Source: Cyanidioschyzon merolae (taxonomy: Eukaryota). From it: DNA of 64,000 bases. Under the pieces are notes generated by a model. That model was not told the origin of the DNA, did not search any database, and saw nothing but the letters and a program-made list of their open reading frames with translations. Below, piece after piece: positions 3,126 through 38,417 of the stretch. The position numbers and the translations under genes are program-made. The stretch lies in NCBI GenBank assembly GCA_000091205.1, contig AP006500.2; one strand, given 5' to 3'. The first letter of the stretch is position 1; every line of letters begins with the position of its first letter.

Positions 3126-3833
3126 CTAATATCGCTCAAAACGAGCACCAAGTAGACCAGCACCTGCCCATGGAGTCGGTACGACAACAATATCGTGCGT
3201 GGTAATCGAGCAGTCAGCTTCTGAAGTGCGCAAACCCCTCACAATCGAAAACACCACAGGTTGAGCGCGATGCTCGGACACCGTCACCGCAAGCGTCTCC
3301 CAGTCAGTACAGGAGGCGACGCGTACAACTAGGTCGCCTTCTTGGAGGCCTCCCTGGGCCGCTGGTGACCCAGCCTCTACCTGCACCACCTTTGCGAACG
3401 GTCTCAGGTTCGACTGACCCAGACTCGTCCCAGTCCATTCTGAGCGTTGTGCTGGCTGGTTGTCTCCGGGGCGGTGTTCCCGGCTCGAGGCAGTCCGCAC
3501 TGCTGGTGCGCTCTCAACAACTCGTGACACAGACGCGGTAGACCGTGCGGTTTGCGCGTGTGTTGGCCCGCTCGTCAGCACCTCCGGAAGCAGCCTTTCA
3601 ATTTCTCTCATTATCAGACGATAATCGGTTTGCAGGCACACGAGACGTTGACGATACTGGCGGATCTGGTACACATCGCAGTCCGAACGGGGGAAGCCGT
3701 CCTCGTCAACGAGTGGACCTCGCACCCCGGCAGGCGTGACTTCTAGACAGGATACCAAGCGTTCAATCTCACGCTCGATTTCTTCTTTCTGTAAAGCTAG
3801 CGCTCGTAGGCGCTGTACGCTGTCGGAGGTCAT
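3126..3833 (-). CDS. PSMD9: 26S proteasome regulatory-particle assembly chaperone PSMD9/Nas2 (coiled-coil + PDZ), 235 aa
   Basis: ATG confirmed (cat at 3831-3833). The N-terminus has a coiled coil (LRALALQKEEIEREIERL). The C-terminal PDZ segment PFAKVVQVEAGSPAAQGGLQEGDLVV aligns with human PSMD9 [25 protein letters not shown]. Confidence 0.7.
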   Translation of the reverse strand: MTSDSVQRLRALALQKEEIEREIERLVSCLEVTPAGVRGPLVDEDGFPRSDCDVYQIRQYRQRLVCLQTDYRLIMREIERLLPEVLTSGPTHAQTARSTASVSRVVESAPAVRTASSREHRPGDNQPAQRSEWTGTSLGQSNLRPFAKVVQVEAGSPAAQGGLQEGDLVVRVASCTDWETLAVTVSEHRAQPVVFSIVRGLRTSEADCSITTHDIVVVPTPWAGAGLLGARFERY

Positions 3834-4786
3834 TTTTTCGACGTCTCAGACAGGCGAACGACGGCGCGTAGCTCCAGGCGTTGCCCGGGAACCTTTACGG
3901 ACGAGGTCGTTTACGACGCTCAAAAGGTCCAAAGATCACAATCCGAAAAAAACATCGGAACTTGGTCTGAAAGAAATCTGAATAGAGCGCTGACGCTCTA
4001 TCCGACTTTTGATTAACAATAGCAACAACAACCGACCTCACGACATTGTCAAAGTCGAAACTGTCGAGCAACGGAACGCACGAAAACCGCACAACTCATC
4101 ACAGTACCTCATTCCGGCGTCTGTGCAGCATTCATAACAAGCATAGGGGATCAACGTATATTCGTACTCGATACACTACTATGCCTAGTTTGTTTACCAT
4201 CAGTAAACCTAACGAAACTCCTACTGAGTAGAGAGATGCATACCTCACCCGCACAAGCGTAACACCCTACGATGGCTACGCTTTCGACAGAAGCATCGCG
4301 AGGTATCTTGCCAGGCCCCAACATCCCCATGTATGTCAGGGCGGTACTGCGATAGGCTGTAGTCTCGGCACCAGGGAAATATCCTATCGCAGGGGATTAT
4401 TCCGTGTGAGTTTCCGATTTACGATACCTGATTTCCGCTGCAGAGCGATGCGTGCTGGTGAGAACACGCATGCGCCAATGCGGCATCGGACACGTGTCTC
4501 CTTTATGGATCGGTGTGAGCACTGCGGTCGGGCAGCGCTTCACGGGACCTGGCAGGCATGAGATACGACGCGCATGCCGCCGCCGTTGAAGAGAAACTTG
4601 ATCTTGATTTCCAGCGTATAGCCGAAATGTAAGAGTTGTATTTTCGTTAACTTCATAGCCAAGCACAGTTTTTCAGTTCATTTGTGTTTCACACCTCAAC
4701 TAAAAAATTCGATTGATATTTCGCAGTATATAACGGAGGCTTTCGAATAGCGTGCTTTTTCGAAAAAGACGCTAAAAAAGGAAAGT

Positions 4787-7112
4787 TATGGGAAAGCGAG
4801 TCGACGAGCCTTGAGGCCCAGTGTCGCCGGCTGCCTGAAAAACAAAAAACAGTGCCGAGTCAAGAAGAAAAGAAAAGAAAAAGAAGCAAAAGGGAGAGGC
4901 CCTACGTCGAAGGCTGCAATAAAGACGACAGTGCGACGAAATCGTAGTAAAACCCTGTCTTCGTAGACATATCAAGGGTCCGCACAAGGAAAAGTCGCAA
5001 GACGCCATCAGAATCCATATCGCGTCTTACTCCATGAGTATTATAAAGGCGTCGTTAGGACTAATGCATTTGGAGAAGGATACGTGTCGCAACGTGACGG
5101 ACATCAAAACAATTGACGTTCTGGAAGAATTTTTCAACAAGACCTTCACCCGCCACCTGATGCTTGGCACCGGGGAAACGTCGAGTGGAAGTGAGCGAGC
5201 GCATGCCCTCCACGAAAATCACGCCGAATACCGCTTCAGCGGTACTCGATACAGGGGCGACTTGTGTATTGACACCTGCGGGGCGGTCAGGTACTTCACG
5301 AACCTGAAGATCCATTTGACCGTGAAACTCGAATGCTTCACGATACGCGTCCTGTTTGCGCTGTACTCGGGCCTCTCGCGCACAGGAATATGGGTCATTA
5401 TCGATGGCATCACGAATGATCGCCAGCACGAACAGGAGACTGAGCTCGTCGAAGAGAAGATATCACACAGGAGAACGAATGAGGCTTCTGTCATCCGTGC
5501 GGCTATGCAAGAGCATCGTGCGGACTTGGTGCTCGCGCATCCAGCAGAAAAGGTATCAGATATGAAAAAAGATGAAGAAAGATGCTGTTCCCGAGCCCTG
5601 CGCTATTTTATGTTTTTGGGCCGGGATCTGGAACGCATGGCCGAAAAGCAGCTGAGTCGCGGAAAAATGAAGATTCGGAGAAATGGAAGGCTTTCCTAAT
5701 GGGTACGCGCTTCAACGTCGTTCCGATATGCAGCATCAACTCACATTTCGTGGCAGTCTGCTCCAGCGTCCCTCATGGCATCATGAGGGATATCTGTCAG
5801 GAGTTCGATGCAGGCAAGAAGGAGTTCATGGGCCAAAACCGGGAAACTCATTGGAAGAATATCTTCGATTTCAAACGTCTCAATACGGGCAAGAAAGGGT
5901 ATTCACGGGGACCATCGGAAGCGATGGGGCAGCCATGTGTGTCCACTACCGGCGGCTGAGGGCGGATCGACCTATCGTGCCTTCGGCTTCGCCCTCGCCG
6001 AAGCATGAAGAAAAGAAGGAGGCAGATCCTGCGACACAGGAGGTGCAGGATAACGAGCTTGTCGTTGGCTCGGCGAAGCATGAAGAAAACAACAAGGTAG
6101 ATCCTGCGACTCAGAAAGTGCAGGATAACGAGCTTGTCGTTGGCTCGGCGAAGCATGAAGAAAACAACAAGGCAGATCCTGCGACACAGGAGGTGCAGGA
6201 TAACGAGCTTGTCGTTGGCACCGACCCGGGGAACACAAATATCGTTACCATCGCTGTACCCAAGCGTGCGGAAGATGGTCCTGACGTTAGCTCACGTCAG
6301 AAAGACATGCTTCTTTTAAAGTTCTAAACATAGAAATACCATCGAGAATCGGGAATACTGAATACGAGGAAGAAAATCGAGACGTGGAATGCCGGAGTGC
6401 AAGAGCATCTGGAAGCTTTGAGCGAGCTGACGAGCCGAGGAGCGGACTTTCAGGCTTTTCGGAAATCCATGAAAGTTCGTGTTGCTCATTGGGAGGCGCT
6501 GTGGGAGGAGTATCCAAAGCCCCGGTGGGCTCGTCAGCGACTGATCTTGTGTTGTGGGAAATAGGGAGCGTTCGCCAACTTTTTCAATGCGTTCGGCGCC
6601 CTCAAAGAGGACGAGAGTCAGAGGCTCGCAATAGCGTATGGAGCAGGGCGCTGGATGACCCAAAAAGGGTGTACACAGCTCCATCGACAAGAGCGTACAA
6701 GAAGTGTGCACATCGTTTTGTCACAATACCTATAGATGAGTTCCTAACGTCCTATATGCACCATGAGCTGGGGTGCACACTTCCGAGCGTCGAGACGGAA
6801 AAGCGTCAGCGGGGCCCTGAGGATATAGCAAAGTACGGAGCGCTGACAGAGCAGCAAGTAGAAAGTAGGGCGAAAGTTCCTGGGCTACGTGCACTGGTGC
6901 GTACAACCAGTGATGGCAAGAAACGTATAGCGTTTGTCAATCGTGACTCGAACGCCGCTATCAATACCAGGAGATGTACGGTGATGGAGACGAGACCCCC
7001 GGAGTTGATACGATCCAACTTTACGGGGCAGCCTCTCAAGGTGGACTTACCCAGGGACAAGTTGGAACCAGTAGTAGGTGGCCGGTCCAAAAAGACCGGG
7101 AGGCGTCTGCAC
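4787..7112 (+). pseudogene. Fanzor/TnpB-like nuclease gene, copy A, inactivated by frameshifts and in-frame stops
   Basis: Homologous protein segments are split across ORFs 5034-5699, 5582-5959, 5683-6327 and the 5' part of 6384-7802. Stops at ...LLLKF*T*KYHRESGIL (6328-6340) and a frameshift near 6550 (LILCCGK*) are absent from copy B. The ATG at 4787 is followed by an early stop. Confidence 0.55.
5994..6210 (+). repeat. 66-bp (22-aa) tandem repeat, ~3.3 copies, inside the Fanzor-like ORF immediately N-terminal to the RuvC-I motif
   Basis: Units GAAGCATGAAGAAAACAACAAGG(C/T)AGATCCTGCGAC(A/T)CAG(G/A)A(G/A)GTGCAGGATAACGAGCTTGTCGTTGGCTCGGC start at 6004/6070/6136. The encoded unit KHEENNKADPATQEVQDNELVVGSA duplicates the strand (DNELVVG) leading into the catalytic TDPGNTN. 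Confidence 0.8.
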
Positions 7113-7202
7113 GTCAGCGTACCGACATCCACACTATCGGCGTCGTGTATATGCGTCGGTATACCTGTTTTGTCTGTGGTAGCTGAGAAGCATGGCCCGT
7201 GG

Positions 7203-7802
7203 ATGACTTTTTCGAGTCGTTTCTTTCGGCAGCTGATTCGCGGTGTCAGCTATGTGCCGGTCGTGTACGTTGTCCACGATCTTGTCGGTACGATTGTTCC
7301 CGTGAGGGGTGCGTCTATGCAACCAACCCTGAACCCAGGTGCGGCTGCAGGGGAGCTACCTCCCGGACAAGTTAGCGGCAGTCAGGATGTCGTGTTGGTT
7401 AGCCGGCTTCTCCGCGCTGTTTGGAACGTAAGGCGTGGGGATATCGTCGTTTTGCGGTCTCCCGACGCGGGACCGCAGAAGCGACTCGTGAAAAGGGTGG
7501 CCGCTCTAGAGGGGGATCGCGTTTACAACCACCGCACTGGGAAGTTTGTGGAGGTTCCACCTGGCCACTGCTGGCTCGTAGGTGACAACCGTACGGTGTC
7601 CCGTGACTCGGCTAGCCACTACGGGCCGGTTCCGCTGGGACTCCTCGAAGGACGCGCAGTGGCGGTTATCTGGCCACCACGTCGCTGGCAGGTGCTCGCG
7701 ACGTCACCAAGCACAGGTTTGTGGCTCGACACTCGGAACAGCGAGGGAGACCAACTGCCAGCCAAGAAGCAAGTGCTGGCCAAGTCGGCAACTACGAAGT
7801 GA
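7203..7802 (+). CDS. IMP2: Mitochondrial inner membrane protease subunit, IMP2-like (signal peptidase S26 family), 199 aa
   Basis: Internal ATG at 7203 of track ORF 6384-7802. The sequence RGASMQPTLNPG...RRGDIVVLRSP...KRLVKRVAALEGD...VPPGHCWLVGDNRTVSRDSASHYGPVPLGLLEGRAVAVIWPPRRWQ aligns along its length with human IMMP2L, including the catalytic Ser (SMQP) and Lys (KRV) boxes. Upstream of 7203 the same frame is the Fanzor-like 3' end, so the fusion is an artefact. Confidence 0.8.
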   Translation: MTFSSRFFRQLIRGVSYVPVVYVVHDLVGTIVPVRGASMQPTLNPGAAAGELPPGQVSGSQDVVLVSRLLRAVWNVRRGDIVVLRSPDAGPQKRLVKRVAALEGDRVYNHRTGKFVEVPPGHCWLVGDNRTVSRDSASHYGPVPLGLLEGRAVAVIWPPRRWQVLATSPSTGLWLDTRNSEGDQLPAKKQVLAKSATTK

Positions 7803-8880
7803 ATGGCTGAACGTCCGGATGGTGAGCAGAGAACGGCGCTATGGAGCAGCACCCATTTCAGAATACCATACAACGGATCCGCTCAGCGAACTCGGGCGTA
7901 GACGCTCAAGTCTGGACCGCTTCGCATTGTCATCTACAAGAGGTTTTGTGGGCGTTTTCTTCGAGTACGTCCTTTTCCTCGCTCTTGTCTCCGGTATTGT
8001 ATACGTCGAACGATGCATGTTTTCTTGTTGGGTTGCCAGTAACCGAGGCATGTCGACGGCAGCGGTAGAGTCGCGGTATCGCCTCTTCGGGCAGTTGTGG
8101 ACGCATTTCATGCCCAGGCAAAAGTTGCCATCGATGGGTCCTCTGTATTTGTATGCAACGTCGGTGCTCCGTTTGCAGCGGTGACAAACTTGGGCGTGTT
8201 CTGGCGTTCCCATGCGTCCCCAACGTACGTTCTCCCTCTCGGAAGGGCGCTTTGTGGTACCTGTACGCCAGCTCCATCACCCACCATATGGTATCGACGG
8301 GTGCAGAGGGCTTGCCCCGAGATCGTCCTCCGTTTCGGCGCCTGGTGCCGTAAACTGCGATGACGGGCTCGTTCTGGTCGATCGCCTCGGCGAGCACCAG
8401 ACGCGCTGCAAACACAAGTGCAAACGCCTCCTCTCGATGACTCAACATGCGCTGGCTTGCGCGCTCTTCGCTCCCTGAGTACGCTTTTGGCGAAACATGG
8501 CGATGATCGTGACGCGCATCGCGTTGCCGTACCTACTCGTGGGCATTGTGTGTCCACGTGCTTCACTTGTATGCGAGCGTGCAGTCACGGCTTCTGGGAC
8601 TCGCTGCTGCTTCCGTCGCTTGCTCGCTGGACGGACGTTTTTCGCGTTCATTATCTTCCGCTGATACGAAGAGTACAGGCGCGCTAGCAGAATGCACGGC
8701 TGCTGGTCCAAGTCAAGTATGCGGGCACAAAACCCGAGCAGCCATAGCTTCGCCTGTTGCCACCAGGGGTATTGGGTCTCTGTTTGGGTAAAAGAGGAGC
8801 GCAGGTGCAGGGGTCCGCACTGCATGCTCCAGGCTGGTGCAGAGTGCATTGGAGAGCATCCTCGCGAGGCGATGCATTTG

Positions 8881-9100
8881 TACGGGTCGTTGCTCGTCTG
8901 CGTAGTAGCTCGTCTGCATAGTAGCTCGTCTGGGCTGTACGGGTCGTTGCTGGTCTGCGCAGTAGCTCGTCTGGGCTGTATAGGTCATTGCTCCTCTTCG
9001 TAGTAGCTCGTCTGGGCTGTACGGGTCGTTGCTCGTCTGCATAGTAGCTCGTCTGGGCTGTTCGGGTCGTTGCTGGTCTGCGCAGTAGCTCGTCTGGGCA
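8881..9100. repeat. 41-bp minisatellite, ~5.5 copies
   Basis: Unit AGTAGCTCGTCTGGGCTGTACGGGTCGTTGCT(C/G)GTCTGC(A/G)(T/C). The period is not a multiple of 3, so three units equal one 41-aa peptide repeat, and two minus-strand frames (track ORFs 8684-9544 and 8713-9276) both stay open across it. Confidence 0.8.
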
Positions 9101-10094
9101 GGGGTGCGTTTCAGCTCTGACGGTGTCATGAATCGTATGGGAGGTTCGCTGTTGTCCTTGTTGATAATGGCGATATTGGCCGATACGCTTACGCAGTCGG
9201 TCTCGACGAAAGACGCAACCTCTCCTGGTCGTATTGCGAAGCTGGTATTCCCGCAGTTTTTCCTTCCCGCTTGCATCTATTGCTTGCGAGGCATGGTGTT
9301 GCCACTGCCGAGCGGTGTTTCCTCGATGACCGTGAAGAAAAGCGGATTCGACTTGAGCACCGAATCGATTATTTGACGTGACAAATCCAGTCGACTTTCG
9401 GAACGGGCCTGCGAACAAGGCATCAAGGGGTGACGTCGAGGCTGTCTGCTCGTCAACCCAACAGAGCGCATTGCTGCGTCCACGAGTTGCCCTGAATCGG
9501 AAAGATCGAAAACTTGAAGCATGTGAGATTCGGGTATGCCACACATAAGGAGAGAAGAAGCGAAGCAGCTTGCAAATATGAGTTGGATATCGATTTCTGT
9601 TTTTTTACGGACCCGTGTTCGGGGGTATCGCGAATCATTCTGACTCCGATGAAAGAACGCATTCCAGCGGTAAATCGTTCAAGGTAACGCTCCGAAAACA
9701 CGACCAAGAATCCTAAAACTACGCGTGAACCCGTATGCCCATAGTGCTGCACTTGGAATCTTGATGCCGCAGATCCAGAGAAAAACGTTTGGATGTATCG
9801 CAAGCTAGGAAGAGCGCAAGCAGCTCAAAACTCCATGATAACGTAATACGGTTCTAGAGACCTGCTCTGGGGCCGCGCTCCCATCCGCAGAGGCAGCGCA
9901 CGAAAGCAAAAGCACAGGACGACTGCACCAGACACCAGCGAGACCGCGGCTCACGACCCGCTCGACAGACACCTGCGTTTGCTCCTTCATCGCACCGCTG
10001 CTTGCACTGCCTCAGACTCGTTCATAACCCAGCATACAAAAGCGTAGAGCGAGATTGTATCCCCCTTCACCGGCTGATCTGACAGGTGTCTTGC

Positions 10095-22135: not shown

Positions 22136-22565
22136 CACCGTGATTCCCAAAAGACGCGTACAGATGCTCTTGATCCATCGACTCTGAATCCACCGTGTCG
22201 CAGTTCAACGCTTTCCGGGATATCGAGCAGTATCGTATACGCCTTTATGGAGGCGTGTAGGATCTTTTATAGGATGCTAGAATCACCGTGATTCCCAAAG
22301 ACGCGTACAGATGCTCTTGATCCATCGACTCTGAATCCACCGTGTCGCAGTTCAACGCTTTCCGGGATATCGAGCAGTATCGTATACGCCTTTATGGAGG
22401 CGTGTAGGATCTTTTATAGGATGCTAGAATCACCGTGATTCCCAAAGACGCGTACAGATGCTCTTGATCCATCGACTCTGAATCCACCGTGTCGCAGTTC
22501 AACGCTTTCCGGGATATCGAGCAGTATCGTATACGCCTTTATGGAGGCGTGTAGGATCTTCTAAA
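22136..22565. repeat. ~147-bp tandem repeat, ~2.9 copies
   Basis: CACCGTGATTCCCAAAGACGCGTACAGATGCTCTTGATCCATCGACTCTGAATCCACCGTGTCGCAGTTCAACGCTTTCCGGGATATCGAGCAGTATCGTATACGCCTTTATGGAGGCGTGTAGGATCTTTTATAGGATGCTAGAAT recurs starting at 22136, 22284 and 22431 with 1-2 differences. It is intergenic, about 460 bp upstream of threonine synthase. Confidence 0.85.
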
Positions 22566-29483: not shown

Positions 29484-30620
29484 TCAAATCTCCCGCTGTT
29501 GCTGGTCGAAAGAGAGCGCACCAGGCCCTTCGAAGACGAGCATGAGCACCCCCGCCATGATGCTGATCGTCTGTACGAATTCATACTGTTTGACATCTCG
29601 CGCATACTGACCAAAAGGTGAACGATCATTGACCTTCCAGAAAGCCGACATCAGCAGATTGTGTGCCGCATAAAACGCAATCAGAATGGACCCGCTGATG
29701 CGTGTCCGGTACCCAGCCAAAACCGCAACCATGACCGGTACTGCAAGCAGCGTTCCTAAAAATCCCAAGGACGATAGAAAATCGATGGGTAACAGCACCA
29801 GCATGATGCGTGCAGTCAGTTGCATGTATTCGAAAACTTTCTGGGAGCTCAGCAAGGCGGATCCTGAAGCGGTACCACTGCTAGCTGGGCGGCTGAATCC
29901 GCCCAGAAGTCCACCGGGAAGTGCGCTGAGGCCTTTTTTAATACGTGCATTCGCCGCAACCATGAGGAACGAGCCAGCCAGGCAAATATTCCGAACCAGA
30001 AACGACACGTTGCCCCCAGTTGCCGGAGCGTCCCTGCCGTACAATGCCTGTTGCACGAGGATATGGACGATGAGCACGTATGACGCTCGCTCCTGCAGTG
30101 AGAGCAAGGCCCGATCGCGCTGGAAAGCTTTCCCAGTGGTGCGTGCCCGCCCTGCTGCGATAATGGCCAGCGACGCCGACACCGAGAGGCACACCATACC
30201 CAGTAGGAAGAGGGTGCCGGCCCAAACGGGGACCCCGTAAAAGTGCCGCAGAAAGCGCGCTTGGCCACCAAGATCTGAAAGCACCCGCAAAGCGTCCTCC
30301 AAAAACGTAGCAACCAAGAGCACGCGAGTAATCATGGAAATGCTACCTTTCCCGATTCGCCCCGAGCGACCGAAGTGCGTCGACAGGTTTTGGACGGCAG
30401 CGGCAGCAGCGCCTCGTAGTGGCGAGCCACTGGTAGCGCTGGTTACCGGACCGGCAGCACCAGTCCAGCCAGGCCCCGAACTCGATTGCACAGGACTTGG
30501 TCCAACAGCCGCGTCTCCAGCGTACATAGGCTGTTGTTCCGCACTTGGAACAGCGCCGTGCGGCGCTCCGTAGCGCGGACCTCCATAAACGCCCCCCTGG
30601 GTGGGATAAATGCCTTCCAT
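29484..30620 (-). CDS. SURF4: SURF4/Erv29-family ER cargo receptor with a Gly/Pro-rich N-terminal extension
   Basis: The core LLVATFLEDALRV...LLSSQKVFEYMQLTARIMLVLLPIDFL...VFEGPGALSFDQQ aligns with human SURF4 (ISTFLEDGIRMW...GPGGVSMDEKKKEW). The track start at 30653 is TTG; ATG candidates are at 30620 (MEGIY...) and 30335 (MITRVLL...). The ~95-aa G/P/A-rich leader may be real, or may be 5'UTR or intron. Confidence 0.7.
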   Translation of the reverse strand: MEGIYPTQGGVYGGPRYGAPHGAVPSAEQQPMYAGDAAVGPSPVQSSSGPGWTGAAGPVTSATSGSPLRGAAAAAVQNLSTHFGRSGRIGKGSISMITRVLLVATFLEDALRVLSDLGGQARFLRHFYGVPVWAGTLFLLGMVCLSVSASLAIIAAGRARTTGKAFQRDRALLSLQERASYVLIVHILVQQALYGRDAPATGGNVSFLVRNICLAGSFLMVAANARIKKGLSALPGGLLGGFSRPASSGTASGSALLSSQKVFEYMQLTARIMLVLLPIDFLSSLGFLGTLLAVPVMVAVLAGYRTRISGSILIAFYAAHNLLMSAFWKVNDRSPFGQYARDVKQYEFVQTISIMAGVLMLVFEGPGALSFDQQQREI

Positions 30621-32059
30621 GTCGCAGCTCACGTTTCTGAGAAACCGGTACAACCTTTGAGGCGACGGGAAACTATTCTCGAGTCCAAAGTGCGAACAGA
30701 GGTCGTCGACTCGCCGAACAGATCGTGTTGCAGAAAAAGGTCACCGTGCGCCGAGAACAAACGCCTTTCAAAAGAGAAACGTTGTCGTCGCCAGCGGTGT
30801 AATGGCGGCGAACAGCGTCCTAGACAAAACGTCTCCATCTGACGTGCAGACGCCTCCCAGTTTTTTTCCATTGACAAAGCGTTTACTTAGGCCAGCGTTC
30901 TCCAATTGTACGCTTTTTCTTCTCTTACTTTTTTTGTGTTATTTTCAGTACCCTGTAAAGGATCCATCAATCCCCTGCTCCCAAGTTACATTACCTATAC
31001 GTCTTCTCGGATATTCTGGTCGTTTCATACGTCCTATCGTGTGTGCCTAGTGCCTGCCTTTCCGTATCCGCCTTTGCACCTTAACCGCTGGAGTAGATAC
31101 TTCATAGAGTTAGACCAGCTTTTCTATATCACAGAGGGCATCGGCTCGAGGCGTGGTTCACCCGACGTAGAATCGGATCTCGTCTTCAGTTTGTGCTTGG
31201 ACAGTCTGCGGATGCAGGCTTGCCTTCGCTGCACGACACGCTGGAGACACTTGGCTGTTAGGATATATCCTGGGAGCCGCCCCTCCACTTCGTGATCATG
31301 CATCGAATGCGTTGTTGTCGGTTGGCTATGCGGGTTTGTGCTTGACACCCACCACAGTGGGTAAGCGCAGAAAGCGCAATGTGCCCGTGTGCGTATCCGA
31401 TTCGCTGGACCTTCCGACTAGAAGTTCGATTTAGATGCACCCTCCACGGGGTGTGTGAACGCACACGCCACCATTGCCTCCTGCATTCCAGTCGTTCATT
31501 GCGTATCTGCCACAGCGCTAGCATAGAATCAAAAGTACATTAGTCAAGGTCGATTCGAATGCGACCTTTATCTTGCCGGACGCGTGAAGCCACCCTAAAC
31601 CACAGGGGAAACTCTACGAACCACCCTTTCAGCGGCTTCGTATCCGCTCCCCAAATACATAGGCGGGCAAGTCGCTTATTCCAGCTTCGACGGCGAACAT
31701 ACTGCCAGCCGTCTTCCAAAGTATCCGCCGAGATTGTTTCCAAAGTTTAGGTAGGTACCCAAGGTAGAAGGTAAAACGGAGCCCGAGTTCGAGGATTGAA
31801 CCAGGATTTGCGCCGGAGCCTGCAGCGTTGATTCGGGAGGGGCGGATAACTGCTCAGAATTTTCGTCAGCTTTTTCTGCTGCTGCTGCCTCCGCCCCTCC
31901 GTTCGTTGCGGTCAAGGTCCCTGGCGTGGGCTTCCTTCGCCGTCGCCCAAGCACCCCGCGTTCGCCCACTTTCAGAGCTTCTCCGGAAAAACTAGACCTC
32001 TTATGCGGGCGTGGTGTGTTGGGCTTAAAGATAGTTGTTCTTTGATGAATAGTTTGTGA

Positions 32060-34758
32060 CTAGTTTGCATCGCGCTCAGTGAGCGCACCTCGGAGATCAG
32101 GCAGGCATGAGACACGACGCACATGCCGTTGTTGAAGGGGAACGTGATCCTGATCTCTAGCATGTAGATCTATTGTAAACGTTGTATTTTCGTTCAGGCC
32201 ATAGCAACGTACAGTCTTTCAGTTCGATTGTGCTTCAAACCTCAAACAAGTCTAGTCAAGTGTTTTTTCGCAGTATATAACAGAAGGGTTCAAAGAGCGT
32301 TCTTTCTCAAAAAACAAAAAAAGGAAAGCTATGAAAAAGCAAGTGCACGATCCTGGAGGCCCAGTGTCGCCGGCTGCCAGAAAAAAACAAAAAACAGTGT
32401 CGAGTCCAGAAGAAAAGGAAGAGAAGAAGGACCGAAAGGGGGATGCCCTACGTCGAAGGCGGCAAGAAAGACGACTGTACGACGAGATGGTGGTGAAAGC
32501 CTTCCTTCTTGGACATATCAAGGATCCCTACAGGGAAAAGTTGCGAGACGCTATCGAAATACGTGTCGACTCGTACTCCAAGAGTATTGTCAAGGCGTTG
32601 TCAGGACTGATGCATTTGGCGAGGGAGATGTATCGCGACGTGACGCACATGCAAACGGTCGAGATTCCAGACGATATCTTCGACAAGACGTTTATTCGCC
32701 ACCTGATGCTTGGTACAGGGGAGATGCGGAGGGAAAATGAGCAGTACATGCCGTACACGAAAACTTCGCGCAATTCCGCTTCGAAGGTAATCGATACAGC
32801 GGTGACGGAAATATTGACACATACGGAGTGAAAAAGTACATCACGAATCTGAAGAACCATCTGATCGTGAACCTCGAACGTTTCATGATACGCGCCGTAT
32901 TTGGACTCTACCCGGGCATCTCTCGCTATGGGAAATGGGCGATTATCAACGGCATCACGAACGATCGCAAGCATGAAGATGAGGTCGAATTTGTTGACCA
33001 GAAGGCGTCAAAAGAGAGCACGAATGAAGCTGCTGTGATCCGTGCGGTTGGACAAGAGCATCGTGTGGTGCTCGGGCTGGTGCATCCAGCAGAAAAGGTA
33101 TAAGAGTTGAAAAAAGATAAGGAAAGATACGATTGTCTCCTCCTACGGTATTTCGTGTTTTTGGACCGTGAACTCGATCGCAAAGCGGAGATGAAGCTGA
33201 GTGAAGAGACAAATGGAGAGTGGGAGAGACGGAAGAATTTCCTAATGGGGAAGTGCTTCAACGTCGTTCCGTCATGCAATGCCAAGTCACATTTTGTTAC
33301 TATCGACTCCAGAATCCCTCACGGCATCATGAAGGAGATCAGTCCGGAGTTCAATGTTAACAGGGAGGAATTCTCCGGTGAAAACCGGATGACGTACTGG
33401 AAGAACATCTTCGATTTCAAACGCCTGAGAGTGAGCAAGCAAAAAGTGTTCACTGGGATAATCGAAACCGATGGAGTAGCCTTGTGTGTACACTATCGGC
33501 GGTTGAAGACAGATCAGCCAGTCCCTCCCTCGGCTGCGCCCATGACGAAGGATGAAGAAAACAAAGAGGCGGGTCCTGCAATGCAAGAGGTGGAGGACAA
33601 CGACTTTGTCGTTGGCGCGGCGGAGCATGAAGAAAACAAAGAGGAGAATCCTACGACTCAGTAGGTAGAGAATAACGACCTTGTCGTTGACGTAACGAAG
33701 GATGAAGATGAGAAGGAAGCGGACCCTGTGATGCAGGAGCTGAGGGGGAACGACCTCATCGTTGACGCGGCGAAGCATGAAGAAAACAAGAAGGCGGGCT
33801 CTGAGAAGCAGAAAGTGCAGGATAACGACTTTGCCGTTGGCGCTGACCCCGGAAACACAAATATCATAAGCATCGCAGCACCCACGCGCGCGGAAAATGG
33901 TACTCACGGTAACTTACGTCAGAAAGACATGCGTCTATTGAGGTTCTCGAGAGCGATATACAATCGATAATCGGGAATCATGAATGCGAGGAAGAAAATT
34001 GAGGCATGGAATGCAGGAATGGAGGATCACCTGGAAGCTATGAGCGAGGTGACGAGCTGCGGAGCGGACTTTGAAGCTTTTCGGAAATTCATGGAAGTTC
34101 ATAGTACCCATTGAGATGCGCTGTGGGAGGAGTATACAAAGCCCCGGTGGGCTCGTCTGCGTATGAATCTATACGGTGGGAGGCAGCGCGCATTCGCGAA
34201 TTTTTTCAATCAGTTGAGCTCCCTAAAGGAGGACGAGAGTCAGAGGCTCGTAGTAGCGTACGGAGCAGGGCGCTTGAAGACCCAAAAAAGGGGCTACGCC
34301 AGCTCCAACGACGAGAACGTACAAGGAGTGTGCACGGCGTTTTGTTACGATACCTGTAGATGAGTTTCGAGCATCCTATGCACACCGTGAACTGGGGTGT
34401 ACACTCCAGAGAGCGGAGATGGAAAAGTGCCAGAGGAGCCCTGAGGATATAAAAAAGTACGGACCGCTGACGGAGGAGCAAATGGAAAGGAGGGCAAAAG
34501 TGCGAGGGCAACTCGCGTTGGTGAGTACAACCCCCAAGCGGCAAGAAACGTATGGAGTTTGTGAACCGAGAATTTAACGCTGCCACCAATATCAGACGAT
34601 GTGCAGTGCTGGAGGAAAGACCTTCAAAGAAGACAAGAGTGAACTTTGTTGGACAACCTATCAAAGTCGAACTATATAAGAAAAAGTTGGAAGCAGTAGC
34701 AGGTAGCCTGTCCAAAAAGACCGGCAGGCGTCTACACTCCAGTTGGAGACTTCTTGTC
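32060..34758 (+). mobile_element. Copy B of the Fanzor/TnpB-like element (~2.7 kb), degenerate
   Basis: It is co-linear with copy A from the left-end hairpins (GCGCTCAGTGAGCGC at 32066-32080; GGCATGAGACACGACGCACATGCC at 32107-32130) through the ORF to the 3' terminus CCTGTCCAAAAAGACCGGCAGGCGTCT (~34723-34750). It ends 76 bp upstream of the KTI12 ATG. Confidence 0.6.
32331..34758 (+). pseudogene. Fanzor/TnpB-like nuclease gene, copy B (~809 codons) with a frameshift and 3 or more in-frame stops
   Basis: ATG at 32331. There is a basic NLS-like N-terminus (ARKKQKTVSSPEEKEEKKDRKGDALRRRRQERR). Lesions are a frameshift near 32828, stops at 33104 (TAA; TCA in copy A), 33662 (TAG) and 33968, and later shifts. 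The RuvC-I-like motif [16 protein letters not shown] is at ~33830-33880 and the RuvC-III-like motif EFVNREFNAATNIRR at 34555-34600. Confidence 0.55.
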
Positions 34759-34833
34759 TAGGCCGCGTTCGCCACTACTGTACACCGCTGGCGACAACGT
34801 TTTTCTTTTGAAAGGCGTTTGTTGTTGACGGTG

Positions 34834-36021
34834 ATGCCGGTTGTCGTGCTCTGCGGCTTGCCTCGAGCAGGCAAGTCAGCGCTGGCAAAGCGAATCGCTG
34901 AAGCAGCACCACCACACCTTAAACCAGTGACGATACTCTCAGATCGCGGCATAGAGGACTACGCTGAGCCGCAGCGCGAGAAGACTGCGCGCAGTCGTCT
35001 GCGTGCAGCCTTGGAGCGTGCACCTTACCGCGAACGTCTGGTGATCGTAGATGCTTGCAATCTCGTCTCTGGTTTTCGCTATGAGCTATGGTGCGTGACC
35101 CGCGTGCCCGCTGGAAAGCGTCAAGAGTCAATACCTCACGTGACAGTACTTATTAGAAGTAAGGCAGACGTTTCTGAAGTCTCCTGTGCTCATAGTCCGC
35201 CGGGATACCAGCGCTCCACTGCCGACCGGCCTTCGGCTGCAGCAGTGGGCCCAACGCGTCTTGTTGTCGAACCCGAACTGACGTCGCCGGAGAGGATCGG
35301 GCACGAGCCGCAAGCGAAAAGCGCCCGGTCGGCGAACGCAGATGCTTTGCGCTCTGTTCTGAACGGGCGATGTGAAGTGGCAGGTCCCAGACAACAGCCT
35401 CAAGCGGACAGCGACGTGGCAGCGAACATTGCCCGGGTACGAGAGCGCTTCGAATGGCCAGACCCGCAAGGCCAACGATGGGATCGACCGCTGTTCACCA
35501 TGTCATTGAAGGAGAGGGTTTGCTCGTACGAAACTCCGGATGGGTGCACGTTCTTCGAAGAAACGCAATGGGTCGCTTCCATCTATGATTGGATTTCAGG
35601 AGGCACTGCTCGGAAGGATTTCAAAACGACGTCACGAATGACGATCGCGACGCGTCAGACTCGCGTTCAATCCGCGGATAGCTACTTCGAAAGCGAGATC
35701 CGCAAAATCGAGGACGCTATTATCCAAGTGCTCTGCGCCGGAGATGAGGGCGAGCATCAACACCCCGGAACGGTGTATACGTACGACAAGTGTCCGCTTC
35801 GCCTTCCTGAATCGTACTTGCGACGGATTTTCCTGCTCGCGAATCAATCCAGTCGCCTGTATACGGTATCGCAAGATTTGCGTGCACATCGTCATCTCTT
35901 TGTACGTCGATATCAGAAACGACGGGTAGAGCAAGATTCGAGTGCTTCGGTGCAAGAGTTCATTCGGTCTCTGGAAGGATACCTTGAGCTGCGCGACCAA
36001 CAACGTCGTAGCGAACACTGA
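34834..36021 (+). CDS. KTI12: KTI12/PSTK-family P-loop protein (Elongator-associated), 395 aa
   Basis: The track start at 34819 is TTG; the ATG is at 34834 (MPVVVLCGLPRAGKSALAKR = Walker A). The box RLVIVDACNLVSGFRYELWCV matches the KTI12 signature LNYIKGFRYELYC. Confidence 0.65.
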   Translation: MPVVVLCGLPRAGKSALAKRIAEAAPPHLKPVTILSDRGIEDYAEPQREKTARSRLRAALERAPYRERLVIVDACNLVSGFRYELWCVTRVPAGKRQESIPHVTVLIRSKADVSEVSCAHSPPGYQRSTADRPSAAAVGPTRLVVEPELTSPERIGHEPQAKSARSANADALRSVLNGRCEVAGPRQQPQADSDVAANIARVRERFEWPDPQGQRWDRPLFTMSLKERVCSYETPDGCTFFEETQWVASIYDWISGGTARKDFKTTSRMTIATRQTRVQSADSYFESEIRKIEDAIIQVLCAGDEGEHQHPGTVYTYDKCPLRLPESYLRRIFLLANQSSRLYTVSQDLRAHRHLFVRRYQKRRVEQDSSASVQEFIRSLEGYLELRDQQRRSEH

Positions 36022-38040
36022 AAACGACGCTGTCTACTACTGCTTAAGATGACAGCTACAGTTGTTAGCCAGCGGCGGCCGCAGGCTAAGAACGCGTCCT
36101 GGATGACAAAGGCATGAATAGCGCCAGAATCCATTGCCCAGGTCTAGGACGGAGGCAGTAGCGAGTCGCTCTGTTCGGGAGCACGCGCCTGCTCAGCGTC
36201 AGATCGCTGACGACAAGCGATGGACGCATACTATGACGACTCTGAACCTGCGCTCTCGTCGATGAGCCGGTGTGCTGCGGAGCGTCATTCGAGCAAGGAA
36301 CGGCGTCAGACAGGCGAGCATCATCAGTGCCTGAGGCGCGGCCATCGCTCGCAAACGAGTGCACTGTCGACAGCACTTGACGTTCCCGCACTAGGCATGC
36401 GAGTGCATACTATCGATCGAAAGCGGACACGTGCCCCAAGCATTAGACAGTGGACCCATTTTCGGCAAATGAACAGGGCAGTAATCTGTGTCAGTAATCA
36501 TAAGCAGATGGTATGGGAGGAGATATGGATGTAGGCGAAGTGGCGTCGCTTGGTACGCTCAGGGAAGCTTTCTTGCTAAGCGCATAGCACCTTGTTGCTG
36601 CGAAACGACACGTCTGCACAAAAGTCCCTGTATGTCGATTTTCTGCTGTTCGCAAGTCATGCGCTGTGGAAGCGCTGCCGACTCCTATGCATAGTGCTGA
36701 CACAGCTCTGCTGCACTACTCGCCGAGCGAGTGACGTGCCTGGGTTTACCTTGTGAAATCGTAGGTTCCGTTTCCTCGAACAAAAGCCTAGCACTCGATA
36801 CCGCTGTGCTTGCATGCGACTACGGCAAATCGTCTGTCTCAGGTACCGACACCCGTCGCGCAAGCGGAGACCCTCTTGGTCGACTAAATGATCCTGCAGC
36901 CCCCAAAACGACAACAACAGAACATGCGTTGCAGCGCAGACAAGACCGAGTCTAGGCGGATTCGCATTTGCTCTGTGCTACAAGCAGAAGACCCCTCCGA
37001 ATTCGAAATTTCGCTGCAGTTGCATTTCGGACGAGTCGGTTGAGCGGGTCTAATCAAAGCACCGAAAATAACTCGTGCGACATGGCCATGAGCGCAGCCT
37101 CAAGCTGGAGCGGTAGCCGTTCCTGGAACACCCATGTGGGCGACAACGATCAGCTTCCCTGGAGTCGGGTATACGCGCTTTCCCGACGGGAGAAGATTCG
37201 TATCTTGCCTCATCTATACTGTCTTGACATGCCGCCACACGGGCCTACTTCTTACCGGACCAATCGAGCGAATATGTGCAACCAAACGAATGCCATCGCA
37301 CAGCGAGACCACCAAGCAATCCATCACTTGAGAGGATCAGCTTGTCATGTTCTGGACGGCAGCCCGCAGCCATAACTTGCGTACTGCGACGACGGAAGCG
37401 ACGTGCTTGGTGGCACACGCTGCGTCCTATGGTGCCGCTCTCGGTTCCAAACAGACGCCGAGATATACCATCACGAAGCCCTGTTGCAGGACGTTCACAG
37501 GATGAGGCGGGTACAGCCTGCGCTTCCCACTCAGTCCAAGTCGGGGAACGATCCAGCGCATCTACAAGCCCAGCGAGACGACGTGTCGCAGCCGTCCGAG
37601 CCACTTTTTCTATATCCTCGGCAGGCTCATGCCTGGTGTTGGTACCGCTAAGCGAACCAACAGCTGACGTACTCGAGGAGCGTGTGCGCACACCAGGTCC
37701 AGTGCGGCTCGCTGCATCCGCAGATGACGATCCGAGCGCTTGCGTTCCAGAAAGTGTTCGTGGACGCGACGCTGACGCCGTCACCAACCGGACATCGTCG
37801 AGGACTTTTCGAATCTCTGACAAGTCCGTAGCATCGGACAGCGCGCTGCGGCGTGTGCGTCTCTATGGCGTTTCCGGCGGTGATATCACCGGCGTCGCCA
37901 GCCCTGCAGCCGGTGACGACTCCACATCCGAACTCGGGCACGCTGCCGCTGGTGCACTAGAGTTCCGACACCCGCCTGCGTGCGGCTGGGATAACGGGCA
38001 TATTCGACTTGTTAGTCCGCTCACGCGTTTTCAGTGCTGC

Positions 38041-38417
38041 TGCTGATCACTACTGATCTCTAATGACTGCTGTTGATTGCTACTGATCATTACTGATCAT
38101 TACTGATTGCTACTGATTGCTACTGATTGCTACTGATCGCTACTGATCGCTGCTGATTGCTGCTGATTGCTACTGATCATTACTGATTGCTACTGATCGC
38201 TACTGATTGCTACTGATCTCTACTGATTGCTACTGATTGCTACTGATCGCTACTGATTGCTACTGATCGCTACTGATCGCTGCTGATCTCTACTGATTGC
38301 TACTGGTCTCTACTGATTGCTACTGATCGCTACTGATTGCTACTGATTGCTACTGATTGCTACTGATCATTACTGATTGCTACTGATCATTACTGATCTC
38401 TACTGATCGCTGCTGAT
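38041..38417. repeat. 10-bp satellite (CTACTGAT[T/C][G/A]), ~37 copies
   Basis: Near-perfect head-to-tail 10-mers with variants TACTGATTGC, TACTGATCGC, TACTGATCAT and TGCTGATTGC. It lies ~190 bp upstream of the glycosyltransferase gene. Confidence 0.9.

Follow-up and report, generated by a model that had tools for sequence, protein, structure and literature searches.

The closest described relatives of the elements considered here were reported from Cyanidioschyzon merolae. Bao and Jurka (2013) described CMe-1A as a repeat of ~150 copies and ~3 kb without terminal inverted repeats (TIRs), left its ends unresolved, classed CMe-1 as Fanzor1, and equated the 5′ part of CMe-1A, 635 bp, with the repeat TE-N2_CMe (PMC3627910). 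The same repeat appears in Nozaki et al. (2007) as a WSV486-like interspersed repeat with 253 copies, 5% of the genome, and is reported there to be transcribed (PMC1955436). Both papers called the distribution of copies random and left ends and target site duplications (TSDs) undefined (PMC3627910, PMC1955436). Half of the repeats carry H3K27me3, and expression is weak (PMC5405695). For Fanzor1 loci, Saito et al. (2023) reported transcription of the omega-RNA from the 3′ inverted repeat, with a 17-codon overlap in GtFz1 (PMC10432273). Placement of CMe-1A at gene starts is not reported in the papers searched.

We analyzed a stretch of 64,000 nucleotides (the window), assigned to C. merolae 10D by exact protein look-ups. 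A whole-element nhmmer profile found five element copies in it, here called A, B, C, D, and X. As the initial annotation had recognized, two of them are long and lie on the same strand: A (3.0 kb) and B (3.4 kb), which match over 4534-7112 versus 32082-34737 at 75-77% identity (blastn). Both are members of CMe-1A, the published Fanzor1 repeat with the alias "WSV repeat". Compared with the published description, in which copies are ~80% identical to the consensus, rather than with a Repbase consensus, they agree in organism, ~3-kb unit, lack of TIRs, and a 5′ part in common with a separate ~635-bp repeat. As published for this repeat, the unit has a single TnpB-like ORF and its copies are ~75-85% alike. 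New relative to the CMe-1A papers are a hairpin-bearing tail that defines the right end, a derivative with an internal deletion, and a measured association with co-oriented start codons. The 5′ parts of the copies are mosaics of other repeats, with at least four alternative repeated 5′ modules upstream of one common core. No second ORF or transposase ORF was found in the element, and all 80 fetched copies are degenerate (longest frame 506 aa).

The Fanzor-like character given to the copies by the initial annotation is borne out by the published family and by relatives whose profile matches solved Fanzor1 structures. Judged by sequence, the copies are homologous to Fanzor1 through a link that is transitive, running through the wider family. 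A profile of the CMe family retrieves 1323 representatives, many of them 600-740 aa long, and a profile of 40 full-length relatives hits Fanzor1 entries in the PDB (9cf0, 2.7e-17; 8gkh, 2.1e-10; 9cer, 7e-6). The narrow CMe profile gave no match against the PDB, and direct domain scores are weak (Pfam Cas12f1-like_TNB, E 0.15; NCBIfam guided_TnpB, E 0.23). The split RuvC residues D, E, and D occur in order in the family consensus (GADPGNTNI, VDEFRTS, and NRDFNAAINIRR) and likewise in the wider family; copies A and B retain the motifs, split over different reading frames. A CxxC...CxxC zinc finger is absent between RuvC-II and RuvC-III, where the consensus, TSYTHHELGCTLQRVEMEKCQRS, offers two His and two Cys that may form a degenerate or alternative metal site. 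At this position SpuFz1 and PpFz1 have Cys-rich segments in the PDB alignment. An AlphaFold2 model of P0006, built on an alignment of 15 sequences, reached a pLDDT of 35, too low to be of use.

Across 80 copies, the right end is a ~110-nt unit that spans the last ~7 codons and the stop codon and continues as a ~65-70-nt non-coding tail, which holds three inverted repeats able to form hairpins and has a G/T-rich terminus. The tail is kept in 73 of 78 profile hits from the fetched loci and the window. Hairpin partners pair in 80% of cells versus 39-53% when slid against each other; covariation in the hairpins was not above shuffles (50/500; duplex test p 0.11), and an Rfam search of the right end gave no match. 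Two subfamilies have distinct terminal hairpins at an identical location. The terminus is sometimes microsatellite-like, with (GCT)n(GGT)n at loci L056 and L068, (GT)n at L046, and (TGCG)n at L025, and conservation is lower after the stop codon (0.79) than at the end of the ORF (0.87). The position and layout of the right-end unit, as in Fanzor1, suggest a putative omega-RNA scaffold or right end. The right terminus reads ...GGCGTTTG(N)TG(G)TG, which is not the Helitron-type CTRR, and a 3′ hairpin is present. With that terminus and no second ORF, the element was placed neither with IS200/IS605-like nor with Helitron-like transposons. In TnpB/Fanzor systems the TAM lies beside the left end rather than the right. 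A TAM-like motif shared beside the right ends, raised by the initial annotation, did not appear: apart from the G/T-rich terminus of the element itself, the ends had nothing in common there. No unoccupied site was recovered from a close relative.

Two of the window copies lie between a SURF4-like gene and a KTI12-domain gene. The SURF4-like gene (29484-30620, minus strand; BAM82545.1, 378 aa; Pfam SURF4, exact look-up) has its ATG at 30620. Upstream of it in the same orientation is copy X (30751-31424, minus strand), an internally deleted element whose tail ends ~130 nt from that ATG. It keeps exactly one 5′ module plus the ~110-nt right end: a class-3 module (31424-30862) runs straight into the final ~17 nt of ORF sequence and the tail (30868-30754). 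Besides the sequence read, X is supported by an inverted match of 30756-30867 to 34714-34823 (82%), by the tail profile (E 2.4e-22), and by the whole-element profile (model positions 2601-2719). Head to head with the 5′ end of X, copy B begins with a class-2 5′ module of ~645 bp (31426-32066, plus strand), delimited by 88-90% matches that start at 31426 in seven loci. By published description, this module is probably the TE-N2_CMe unit of Bao and Jurka; it is found without the core at locus L073. The common core and degenerate Fanzor1 ORF of B follow at 32067-34761 on the plus strand, a span drawn from ORF fragments, the consensus, and the start of alignment of most copies at B 32066-32069. 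The ORF has stops and frameshifts, RuvC motifs GADPGNTNI and NREFNAATNIRR are visible, and the TAG stop of the family occupies 34759-34761.

The initial annotation had ended copy B at ~34758, 76 bp before the KTI12 ATG. Only the stop codon is there, and the tail conserved in ~80 related copies runs on (34722-34831, plus strand; alignment of 80 tails, folds, and pairing counts; tail profile 34722-34824, E 5.4e-26). Stem 1 covers the last codons and is followed by a GGCG..CGCC hairpin, a long terminal hairpin of variant 2, and the G/T-rich end TTTGTTGTTGACGGTG. The end of B lies between 34825 (tail profile) and 34831 (whole-element profile envelope), 2-8 nt before ATG 34834, at which the KTI12-domain protein BAM82546.1 starts exactly (34834-36021, plus strand; 395 aa; Pfam KTI12, E 1.3e-27; exact look-up). 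The same arrangement of B and KTI12 is present in strains L084-L087. In Cyanidiococcus the orthologous SURF4-KTI12 spacer is 1240 nt long and has no element.

Copy A (4090-7117, plus strand) was delimited by blastn against B, by nine related copies at its 5′ boundary, and by nhmmer. Its left neighbor is a divergent Nas2/PSMD9-like gene (3126-3833, minus strand; ORF with Pfam Nas2_N, E 2.8e-24, match from residue 9), whose ATG at 3833 is 256 nt from the 5′ end of A. A class-1 5′ module (4090-4533) precedes the common core and a frameshifted ORF, whose fragments are spread over three reading frames. The whole-element profile matches 4368-6072 and 6147-7117, covering model positions 10-2630 of ~2720. 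Within the ORF are three 75-bp tandem units (5994-6219, plus strand; TRF and blastn self-hits); copy B has four (33546-33843), so the number differs between copies, and protein repeats also occur at loci L038 and L004. Copy A is 3′-truncated, lacking the last codons and stop codon of the family together with its non-coding tail, a loss of ~90 nt. It is followed on the plus strand by a spacer of 85 nt (7118-7202; the tail profile stops at 7117) with no detectable element origin when compared with both tail consensus variants (Smith-Waterman, shuffle p 0.55 and 0.69), and by IMP2, mitochondrial inner membrane peptidase subunit 2 (7203-7802, plus strand; BAM82540.1, 199 aa; exact-sequence look-up, Pfam S26). 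Thus, the claim that the long copies end ~80 bp before an ATG stands for A, where homology stops at 7117, and falls for B. The other two copies, both on the plus strand, are remnants. Copy D (46332-46904; nhmmer, sequence, and ORFs) is internally deleted, consists of model positions 326-550 and 2417-2621, and adjoins no gene start. Copy C (59209-59570; blastn, nhmmer, and sequence) is 5′-truncated, spans model positions 2276-2635, and is followed 789 nt downstream by a TrmO-like ATG at 60359 (Pfam TrmO_N). Of the five copies, A, C, and D have no tail, and each of these ends no more than 15 nt from the tail start.

A survey of element 3′ ends relative to gene starts, which the initial annotation had called for, used 52 independent loci from metagenomic Cyanidioschyzon relatives with ORF-based gene calls, not the annotated 10D genome. 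A same-strand ATG (ORF of at least 150 aa) lies within 40, 100, and 150 nt of the tail end in 10, 16, and 20 of the 52 unique loci, compared with 1.9, 4.6, and 6.6% of random non-ORF positions (p 5e-8 to 4e-11). At 100 nt this is 31% versus 3-5% expected (p 8e-10), and the excess still has p 3e-5 against a 10% null and 0.003 against a 15% null; raising the ORF threshold to 200 aa gives 14/51 versus 3.2%. The excess over chance is about eightfold across ~50 independent copies, a factor that shifts with the spacer length assumed before insertion in the null. Gene ends on the opposite strand occur within 100 nt at chance level (3/51 vs 3.4%) and are mildly enriched farther out, at 150-300 nt (p 0.04-0.05). 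Of 18 downstream ORFs tested, 17 (16/17 plus the KTI12-like gene of the window) encode ordinary host domains that differ from one another. The right end is therefore non-randomly placed, 0-150 nt upstream of a co-oriented start codon in about a third of copies, and this strand-specific excess upstream of gene starts is that of promoter- or 5′-end-targeting elements; it may have arisen at insertion or by retention. Roughly 60% of copies have no gene start next to them.

We think this bias most likely stems from a preference for placement at gene 5′ ends in the same orientation. Placement would be fixed at insertion by a strand-biased preference for the 5′-proximal promoter/5′-UTR region. Such insertions would be tolerated because transcription leaving the right end could still serve the downstream gene; some outward transcription is to be expected, as an omega-RNA guide must be read from the flank. 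We hold the explanation as a whole, in which CMe-1A copies have a non-random right end, placement is set at insertion, and the fused ORF is a by-product, with moderate confidence. Adjacent and non-adjacent copies are equally diverged (consensus similarity 0.870 vs 0.878) and their tails are equally conserved (0.794 vs 0.789, p 0.79), which together with the element-free Cyanidiococcus spacer supports an origin at insertion. The lack of a target motif to the right of the end and the majority of copies away from genes count against it.

Another route to the same pattern, which we regard as possible though somewhat unlikely, would be insertion anywhere in spacers of this streamlined genome, with later deletions of the DNA that separates the element from the next essential sequence and survival near gene starts of co-oriented copies only. 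Tail loss in A, C, and D so close to the tail start is as such trimming would leave it, and at locus L088, whose tail stops 3 nt short of the SNF8 ATG, a deletion has removed the terminal hairpin right up to that start codon. Junction deletions thus occur and may contribute. Non-element DNA left amounts to 142 nt in the X and B region and 341 nt in the A region, compared with 1240 nt in the Cyanidiococcus spacer and 0.3-4.7 kb for other window spacers, which hints at loss of flanking DNA; the mild enrichment of opposite-strand gene ends at 150-300 nt also fits. However, trimming should grow with age, yet divergence gives adjacent and non-adjacent copies the same age, and the excess is specific to same-strand starts. 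Most adjacent copies also keep an intact tail ending 6-35 nt before the ATG, making random deletions an unlikely cause, as these would not halt at the last base of the element.

A stronger form of directed placement, which we consider unlikely, is that the right end of this Fanzor1 family is directed to, or has become, the host transcription-start region, with housekeeping genes such as KTI12, RPL37a, FtsZ, and SNF8 transcribed out of the element. If so, host 5′ leaders and start codons would supply the guide segment of the element, CMe-1A would become the first TnpB/Fanzor carrier known to be placed in a gene-start-specific and strand-specific way, and it would offer a possible route from a selfish nuclease to an RNA-guided or cis-regulatory function.

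Exaptation, in which the tail serves as an outward promoter or 5′ leader and adjacent copies are kept by positive or purifying selection for driving the host gene, appears distinctly unlikely. The gap between tail and ATG is 2-35 nt for KTI12, RPL37a, WD40, Macro, and others, so transcription must start in the tail or upstream of it; the downstream host genes are conserved and intact, and the repeats are reported to be transcribed (PMC1955436). Nonetheless, gene-adjacent tails are no better conserved than the rest, the post-stop tail falls below the ORF end in conservation, and IMP2 is intact though copy A lost its tail. H3K27me3 on half of the repeats and their poor expression (PMC5405695) likewise speak against exaptation. 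The same chromatin mark and weak expression argue against strong read-through (PMC5405695).

We think it very unlikely that the element moves like a SINE, as RNA mobilized by one of the 26 non-LTR retrotransposons of the alga through target-primed reverse transcription with 5′ transduction of upstream promoters, which would also account for the gene-proximal placement. This would suit the sharp 3′ end with its stem-loop and G/T-rich, sometimes microsatellite-like terminus, the alternative 5′ modules before one core, the absence of a transposase ORF, the 5′ truncation of some copies, and the lack of TIRs with TSDs unresolved (PMC3627910). No poly(A) or TSDs were seen, though, and copy X, internally deleted with both ends intact, is more typical of DNA transposons, which all characterized Fanzor carriers are (PMC3627910, PMC10432273). 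Chance, one of the explanations first offered for two of two long copies lying before genes, is highly improbable: the genome is compact, with ~1 gene per 3.5 kb, and remnants C and D are away from gene starts, but the excess within 100 nt persists under each null and the adjacent host genes are all different.

The 472-aa ORF with a GTG start (6384-7802, plus strand) exists in the sequence but is not a true gene; it is a by-product of the truncation of copy A, whose loss of stop codon and tail left the frame open from the pseudogene into IMP2. It runs from a frameshifted stretch through the RuvC-II/III end of the Fanzor pseudogene and the 85-nt spacer into IMP2, and its sole Pfam match is Peptidase_S26 (residues 289-381, E 2.9e-18). 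That it encodes a genuine nuclease-peptidase fusion is next to impossible: the frame is continuous and open and metagenome pipelines call a 433-aa protein, but the start is GTG in a eukaryote, the first ~95 residues read the element out of frame, RuvC-I sits in a different frame, non-coding spacer lies inside the frame, other copies have a stop codon ahead of the tail, and ATG 7203 is the start of the reference protein, exactly, and of 199-aa cluster members. The initial annotation was right to call the ORF an artifact and to warn of chimeric annotations. Ten or more IMG/Logan gene calls, 433 aa long and labeled 'inner membrane protease subunit 2', are chimeras of copy A and IMP2, and a second chimera joins the element to EAP30/SNF8. 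Prokaryote-style gene callers thus already yield false "protease" proteins with a Fanzor C-terminus, and analyses of domain fusions or Fanzor distribution in metagenomes should mask the CMe-1A repeat.

How transposase-less Fanzor carriers move and choose sites becomes testable here, as C. merolae is fully sequenced, transformable, and nearly intron-free and has a ~250-copy family whose putative guide-RNA end shows a measurable strand-specific association with host start codons. A related matter on which the family sheds light is the tolerance of a very compact genome for 3-kb insertions that separate promoters from coding sequences.

Like the Fanzor1 ribonucleoprotein loci (SpuFz1, 8gkh, S. 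punctatus; 9cf0, P. parasitica; GtFz1, 9cer, G. theta), CMe-1A has a homologous nuclease with D/E/D RuvC residues and, as read from DNA, a conserved, hairpin-forming non-coding region from the last codons to the right end, the place that encodes omega-RNA in those loci (PMC10432273). Unlike SpuFz1, PpFz1, and GtFz1, it does not keep the Cys4 pattern (consensus ...TSYTHHELGCTLQRVEMEKC...), its copies are degenerate, and it has no terminal inverted repeat. With IS200/IS605-TnpB elements it shares a TnpB-type nuclease, a subterminal right-end hairpin, no TIRs, no TSDs, and a guide-RNA scaffold at the right end (putative in CMe-1A); it differs in having no TnpA, no conserved tetranucleotide at the right junction, a eukaryotic host, and mosaic 5′ modules. 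The Drosophila P element, maize Mutator, and S. pombe Tf1 insert preferentially at gene 5′ ends or promoters, and Dictyostelium TRE elements beside tRNA genes. Like these, CMe-1A is concentrated in a compact genome no more than ~150 nt upstream of gene starts. Unlike them, it is strand-biased, with its right end facing the gene and the ATG often 2-35 nt away, and it encodes an RNA-guided nuclease rather than a known transposase or integrase.

We surveyed the window with a profile of 29 whole copies and found five elements of the Fanzor1 repeat family CMe-1A. Copies A (4090-7117, +) and B (31426-~34831, +) are 75-77% identical (4534-7112 against 32082-34737, blastn), and both are fragmented into ORF pieces in differing frames. 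Copy C (59209-59570, +) is 5'-truncated and copy D (46332-46904, +) internally deleted. Copy X (30751-31424, -), an unexpected find, is a 5' module with a right end. The conserved right end, or tail, is present in B and missing from A, C and D. Among 80 related loci fetched from hot-spring metagenomes no intact full-length ORF was found, the longest frame being 506 aa; a relative was encoded in 393 of 600 among the matches listed.

The element itself is already known. Bao & Jurka (2013, PMC3627910) described CMe-1A as a Fanzor1-encoding repeat about 3 kb long and of unknown class, without TIRs and with undetermined TSDs, whose ~150 copies share ~80% identity with the consensus and whose 5' 635 bp are a separate repeat, TE-N2_CMe; they also report some intact family members. 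As a WSV486-like interspersed repeat, the element was given as 3.2 kb long, with 253 copies making up 5% of the genome, and as transcribed (Nozaki et al. 2007, PMC1955436). In Auxenochlorella, another streamlined alga, the most abundant repeat is likewise an uncharacterised Fanzor element. The family consensus has the three RuvC motifs in order. Neither the element protein nor the narrow family profile gave a significant match when searched directly against Pfam, NCBIfam and PDB. The family profile retrieved 1323 representative proteins, many of 600-740 aa, and matches to Fanzor1 structures were obtained only with a wider profile built from 40 of these (Parasitella 9cf0, 2.7e-17; Spizellomyces 8gkh, 2.1e-10; Guillardia 9cer, 7e-6). 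An AlphaFold2 model of a 429-aa C-terminal element protein had a pLDDT of 35 and was discarded as unusable. PF26935 (DUF8286) is a precomputed Pfam match on N-terminal parts of the element protein (246-611 of locus L088; proteins P0050 and P0051), and the assignment for P0050 was not reproduced in our own Pfam scan.

Just before RuvC-I the Fanzor ORF contains 75-bp tandem units encoding KHEENK..DPATQEVQDN.LVVG, three in A (5994-6219), four in B (33546-33843) and up to about six in other copies (L038). The window has three other tandem arrays. One, with 4.7 copies of a 41-bp unit (8908-9099), lies inside a 286-aa ORF (8684-9544, -) with a reiterated ELLRRPATTRTAQTSYYAD motif; another, with 2.9 copies of 147 bp at 99% identity (22136-22560), is upstream of the PALP gene; the third, 38 copies of a 10-bp unit (38039-38417), directly follows ORF 37276-38046.

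When the 3' ends of the 80 loci were stacked, conservation extended ~65-70 nt beyond the stop codon, with the consensus GGCG(N5-9)CGCC ACTACTGTACACCGCTGG CGTCGTTCGACTTTCGAACGGCG TTTGGTG. In B the stop codon is at 34759-34761 and the tail ends at 34825 by the tail profile (E 5e-26) or at 34831 by the envelope of the whole-element profile, the 3' terminus being uncertain by up to ~8 nt. The ATG of a KTI12-domain gene (34834-36021, +; BAM82546.1, exact sequence match) then follows (...GTTTGTTGTTGACGGTG ATG CCG...). The initial annotation had placed the end of B at ~34758, 76 bp before this ATG; that position marks the stop codon only, and the conserved tail leaves a gap of just 2-8 nt. The same junction is found in strains whose KTI12 is 98% identical. 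Similarity of the tail to the region upstream of Cyanidiococcus KTI12 was not significant (p 0.21). In X, a repeated 5' module runs straight into the final ~17 nt of the ORF and the tail (...GGAAAAAAA|CTGGGAGGCGTCTGCAC...). X, reduced to a 5' module and the ~110-nt right end, points to the tail unit as the cis-acting end of the element.

Three hairpins recur in single-sequence folds of the right end: the first (GAGGCGTCT/AGACGTTTC) across the last codons, the second GGCG...CGCC, and a long terminal one. Two sequence variants of the terminal hairpin exist (CGTCGTTCGA-CTT-TCGAACGGCG and CAACGTTTTTC-TTTT-GAAAGGCGTTTG), each with its own pairing register; owing to this difference RNAalifold gave no consensus structure for 46 right ends, and individual MFE folds could not be mapped onto alignment columns. 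With a hand-set structure, 80% of cells were paired in 27 variant-1 tails, compared with 39-53% with slid partners. Covariation in these 27 tails was not above shuffles (50/500), nor did a duplex-energy test detect co-variation of the variable segment before the hairpin with the G/T-rich terminus (p 0.11). We therefore claim only that the family founders had hairpin-forming sequence, and make no claim of ongoing structural selection on the tail. Rfam had no match within the 64-kb window. In the Fanzor1 elements of Saito et al. (PMC10432273) the 3' inverted repeat is reported to give rise to the omega-RNA, with a 17-codon overlap in GtFz1. Its position and layout match those of the CMe-1A right end, which makes the tail a putative omega-RNA scaffold.

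On the 5' side, the common core begins at 32067 in B (TCGCGCTCAGTGAGCGC) and is preceded by one of at least four alternative repeated modules, each flanked by further repeats. Three are in the window (class 1, 4090-4533; class 2, 31426-32066; class 3, 30862-31424), with others in the fetched loci L003-L082. Every module class is itself repeat-flanked, and neither a single 5' boundary nor a left terminus, TSD or left-flank target motif could be defined in the window copies and metagenome loci. In L024, L026, L060 and L065 a solo tail precedes the class-1 module by ~270 nt.

Copy A also ends shortly before a host gene, as the initial annotation had it: family homology breaks off at 7117 (...GGCGTCTGCACGTCAG), 85 nt before the gene for IMP2 (7203-7802, +; BAM82540.1, "similar to inner mitochondrial membrane peptidase Imp2p", 199 aa, exact sequence match). 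The other copies go on with ...TTGGAGACGTTTTGTCTAG, encoding S-W-R-R-F-V-stop, and the non-coding tail, all missing from A. The 85-nt spacer does not resemble the tail (shuffle p 0.55). A decayed tail after A, C or D was rejected (p 0.16-0.72, similarity test). As A is thus a 3'-truncated pseudogene without a stop codon, a frame is open from the element into IMP2. This 472-aa ORF (6384-7802, +), previously taken to be an artefactual fusion, is an ordinary artefact. It has a GTG start; its first ~95 residues are the element read out of frame, residues ~100-245 correspond to the nuclease's RuvC-II/III end, and the 85-nt spacer and IMP2 follow. Its Pfam match is confined to residues 289-381 (Peptidase_S26), and the reference protein starts at 7203. 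Five ATG-started ORFs of the window match C. merolae 10D proteins residue for residue. A contig index look-up returned no record for the 472-aa ORF, the 199-aa IMP2 or the IMP2 paralogue (P0141). A second IMP2 gene (BAM82534.1; protein at least 90% identical) is six annotated genes upstream on the same chromosome, outside the window. The predicted danger of chimeric gene calls is real. Unlike the 199-aa reference annotation, at least 10 distinct 433-aa proteins in IMG and Logan begin inside the element, the IMG calls being named "inner membrane protease subunit 2", and in a second chimera the element C-terminus is joined to an EAP30/SNF8 protein.

A also lies between divergent genes, with Nas2 (3126-3833, -; Nas2_N E 2.8e-24) 256 nt to the left and IMP2 85 nt to the right. 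X and B fill another divergent intergenic region, their tails directed outward to SURF4 and KTI12. X faces the SURF4-like gene (29484-30620, -; BAM82545.1, exact sequence match), whose annotated ATG (30620) is ~130 nt past the tail. As X and B abut head to head at 31424/31426, only about 142 nt of the 4213-nt spacer is non-element. The two tails form an inverted repeat (~110 nt, 82%) about 4 kb apart, and the class-2/class-3 head-to-head junction is also present in the metagenome locus L073. The 7-mer ACGGTGA follows both outward tails (30741-30747, -, at +7; 34827-34833 at +3), and the joined flanks would form the 7-bp inverted repeat TCACCGT...ACGGTGA. Either the target was palindromic, or the element itself ends in ...CGGTG, able to pair with a CACCG that precedes the terminal hairpin.

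Cyanidiococcus yangmingshanensis keeps the gene order PALP, Snf7, SURF4 (-), KTI12 (+), glycosyltransferase, FAD oxidase, and has a SURF4-KTI12 spacer of 1240 nt without a detectable element, which places the X and B insertions in the Cyanidioschyzon lineage alone. The six-gene order is conserved between its contig JANCYV010000015.1 (L083) and window positions 22993-45324. Of four comparable element-free spacers, C. merolae has three that are two to three times as long as their Cyanidiococcus counterparts (PALP-Snf7, ~3.3-3.6 vs 1.3 kb; KTI12-glycosyltransferase, 2.6 vs 1.1 kb; glycosyltransferase-FAD oxidase, 3.1 vs 1.2 kb), and the convergent Snf7-SURF4 spacer is about equal (0.75 vs 0.69 kb). 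SURF4 contigs in Logan and ENA are DNA assemblies broken inside the repeat. One ENA contig (L089, 1-5562) joins SURF4, the X tail and ~190 nt of the X 5' module to unrelated genes (kinase/PP2C, PANTS-like), through either structural variation or chimeric assembly at the repeat.

We also examined how often tails end close to host start codons. The survey used metagenomic relatives and ORF-based gene calls rather than the annotated 10D genome. Tail ends were set from the alignment, and merging loci with matching downstream flanks (at least 85% identity) left 56 unique flanks, 52 of them usable. We measured from the tail end to the first ATG opening a same-strand ORF. With ORFs of at least 150 aa, such an ATG lay within 40, 100 and 150 nt in 10, 16 and 20 of the 52 loci, the shortest distances being 6, 8, 16, 20, 27, 32, 32, 32, 34 and 34 nt. 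For random positions drawn from both strands of these sequences, long ORFs excluded, the figures were 1.9%, 4.6% and 6.6% (binomial p 5e-8, 8e-10 and 4e-11), so chance, raised earlier as one explanation, does not account for the placement. To allow for uncertainty in the pre-insertion spacer length, generous nulls were used as well (p 3e-5 vs 10%; p 0.003 vs 15%). For ORFs of at least 200 aa, 14 of 51 were within 100 nt, with 3.2% expected (p 4e-10), while opposite-strand gene 3' ends were as frequent at that distance as expected (3/51 vs 3.4%); in 27 loci the nearest long ORF began on the same strand, and in 17 it was an opposite-strand ORF with its end towards the tail (p 0.023). Ordinary and mutually different host domains were found in 16 of 17 scanned nearby metagenome ORFs, or 17 of 18 with the KTI12-like gene of the window (WD40, cytochrome b5, phycobilisome protein, Macro, ribosomal L37ae, methyltransferases, PHD, Rpr2, LRR, superfamily-1 helicase, Vps54, NusB/RsmB, ABC transporter, FtsZ, phosphoglucomutase, VHL); these are thus real genes at independent loci. 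In L088 a tail without the terminal hairpin ends 3 nt before the SNF8 ATG. There is thus a placement bias specific to same-strand starts. The shared motif suggested for the right flanks did not appear: to the right of the tail, no motif is conserved other than the G/T-rich terminus that belongs to the element.

Copies next to genes and copies elsewhere are alike in divergence from the consensus (0.870 vs 0.878) and in tail conservation (0.794 vs 0.789). The idea that gene-adjacent tails are younger or better conserved was rejected on these values. The placement fits having been fixed at or soon after insertion. The explanation that we favour, at roughly even odds, is that insertion is strand-biased and prefers the 5'-proximal region of genes. 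The element would insert preferentially there in one orientation, and the insertions would be tolerated through transcription leaving the right end, some outward transcription being expected of such elements because the omega-RNA guide must be read from the flank. With spacers of 2-35 nt, host start sites must lie in or upstream of the tail. That retention and trimming shaped the placement, through deletions at the element-gene junction, is a lesser possibility which we keep because such deletions clearly happen: the tail-less A, C and D all stop within 15 nt of the tail start, L088 is deleted right up to the ATG, and very little non-element spacer remains around A and around X and B. Slow trimming should increase with age, however, and the equal divergence of adjacent and non-adjacent copies argues against it. 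Equal tail conservation likewise speaks against adjacent tails having been selected as promoters. Half of these repeats carry H3K27me3 and their expression is below that of genes (PMC5405695), so the element's own promoter is unlikely to drive strong read-through. As the mode of transposition, RNA-mediated mobilisation would also fit the sharp 3' end with a stem-loop, the at times microsatellite-like terminus, the mosaic 5' modules, and the lack of both TIRs and a transposase. C. merolae has 26 non-LTR retrotransposons.

Promoter-proximal insertion is well known for the P element, Mutator and Tf1. For TnpB/Fanzor carriers, the literature searched yielded no such report. Against the same literature, three results appear to be new: that the right end has been defined, that an internally deleted derivative occurs, and that the right end has a co-oriented link with host start codons. 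Copies of this repeat were described as "distributed randomly" by Nozaki et al. (2007, PMC1955436), whereas here their right ends lie just before co-oriented host start codons more often than expected by chance.
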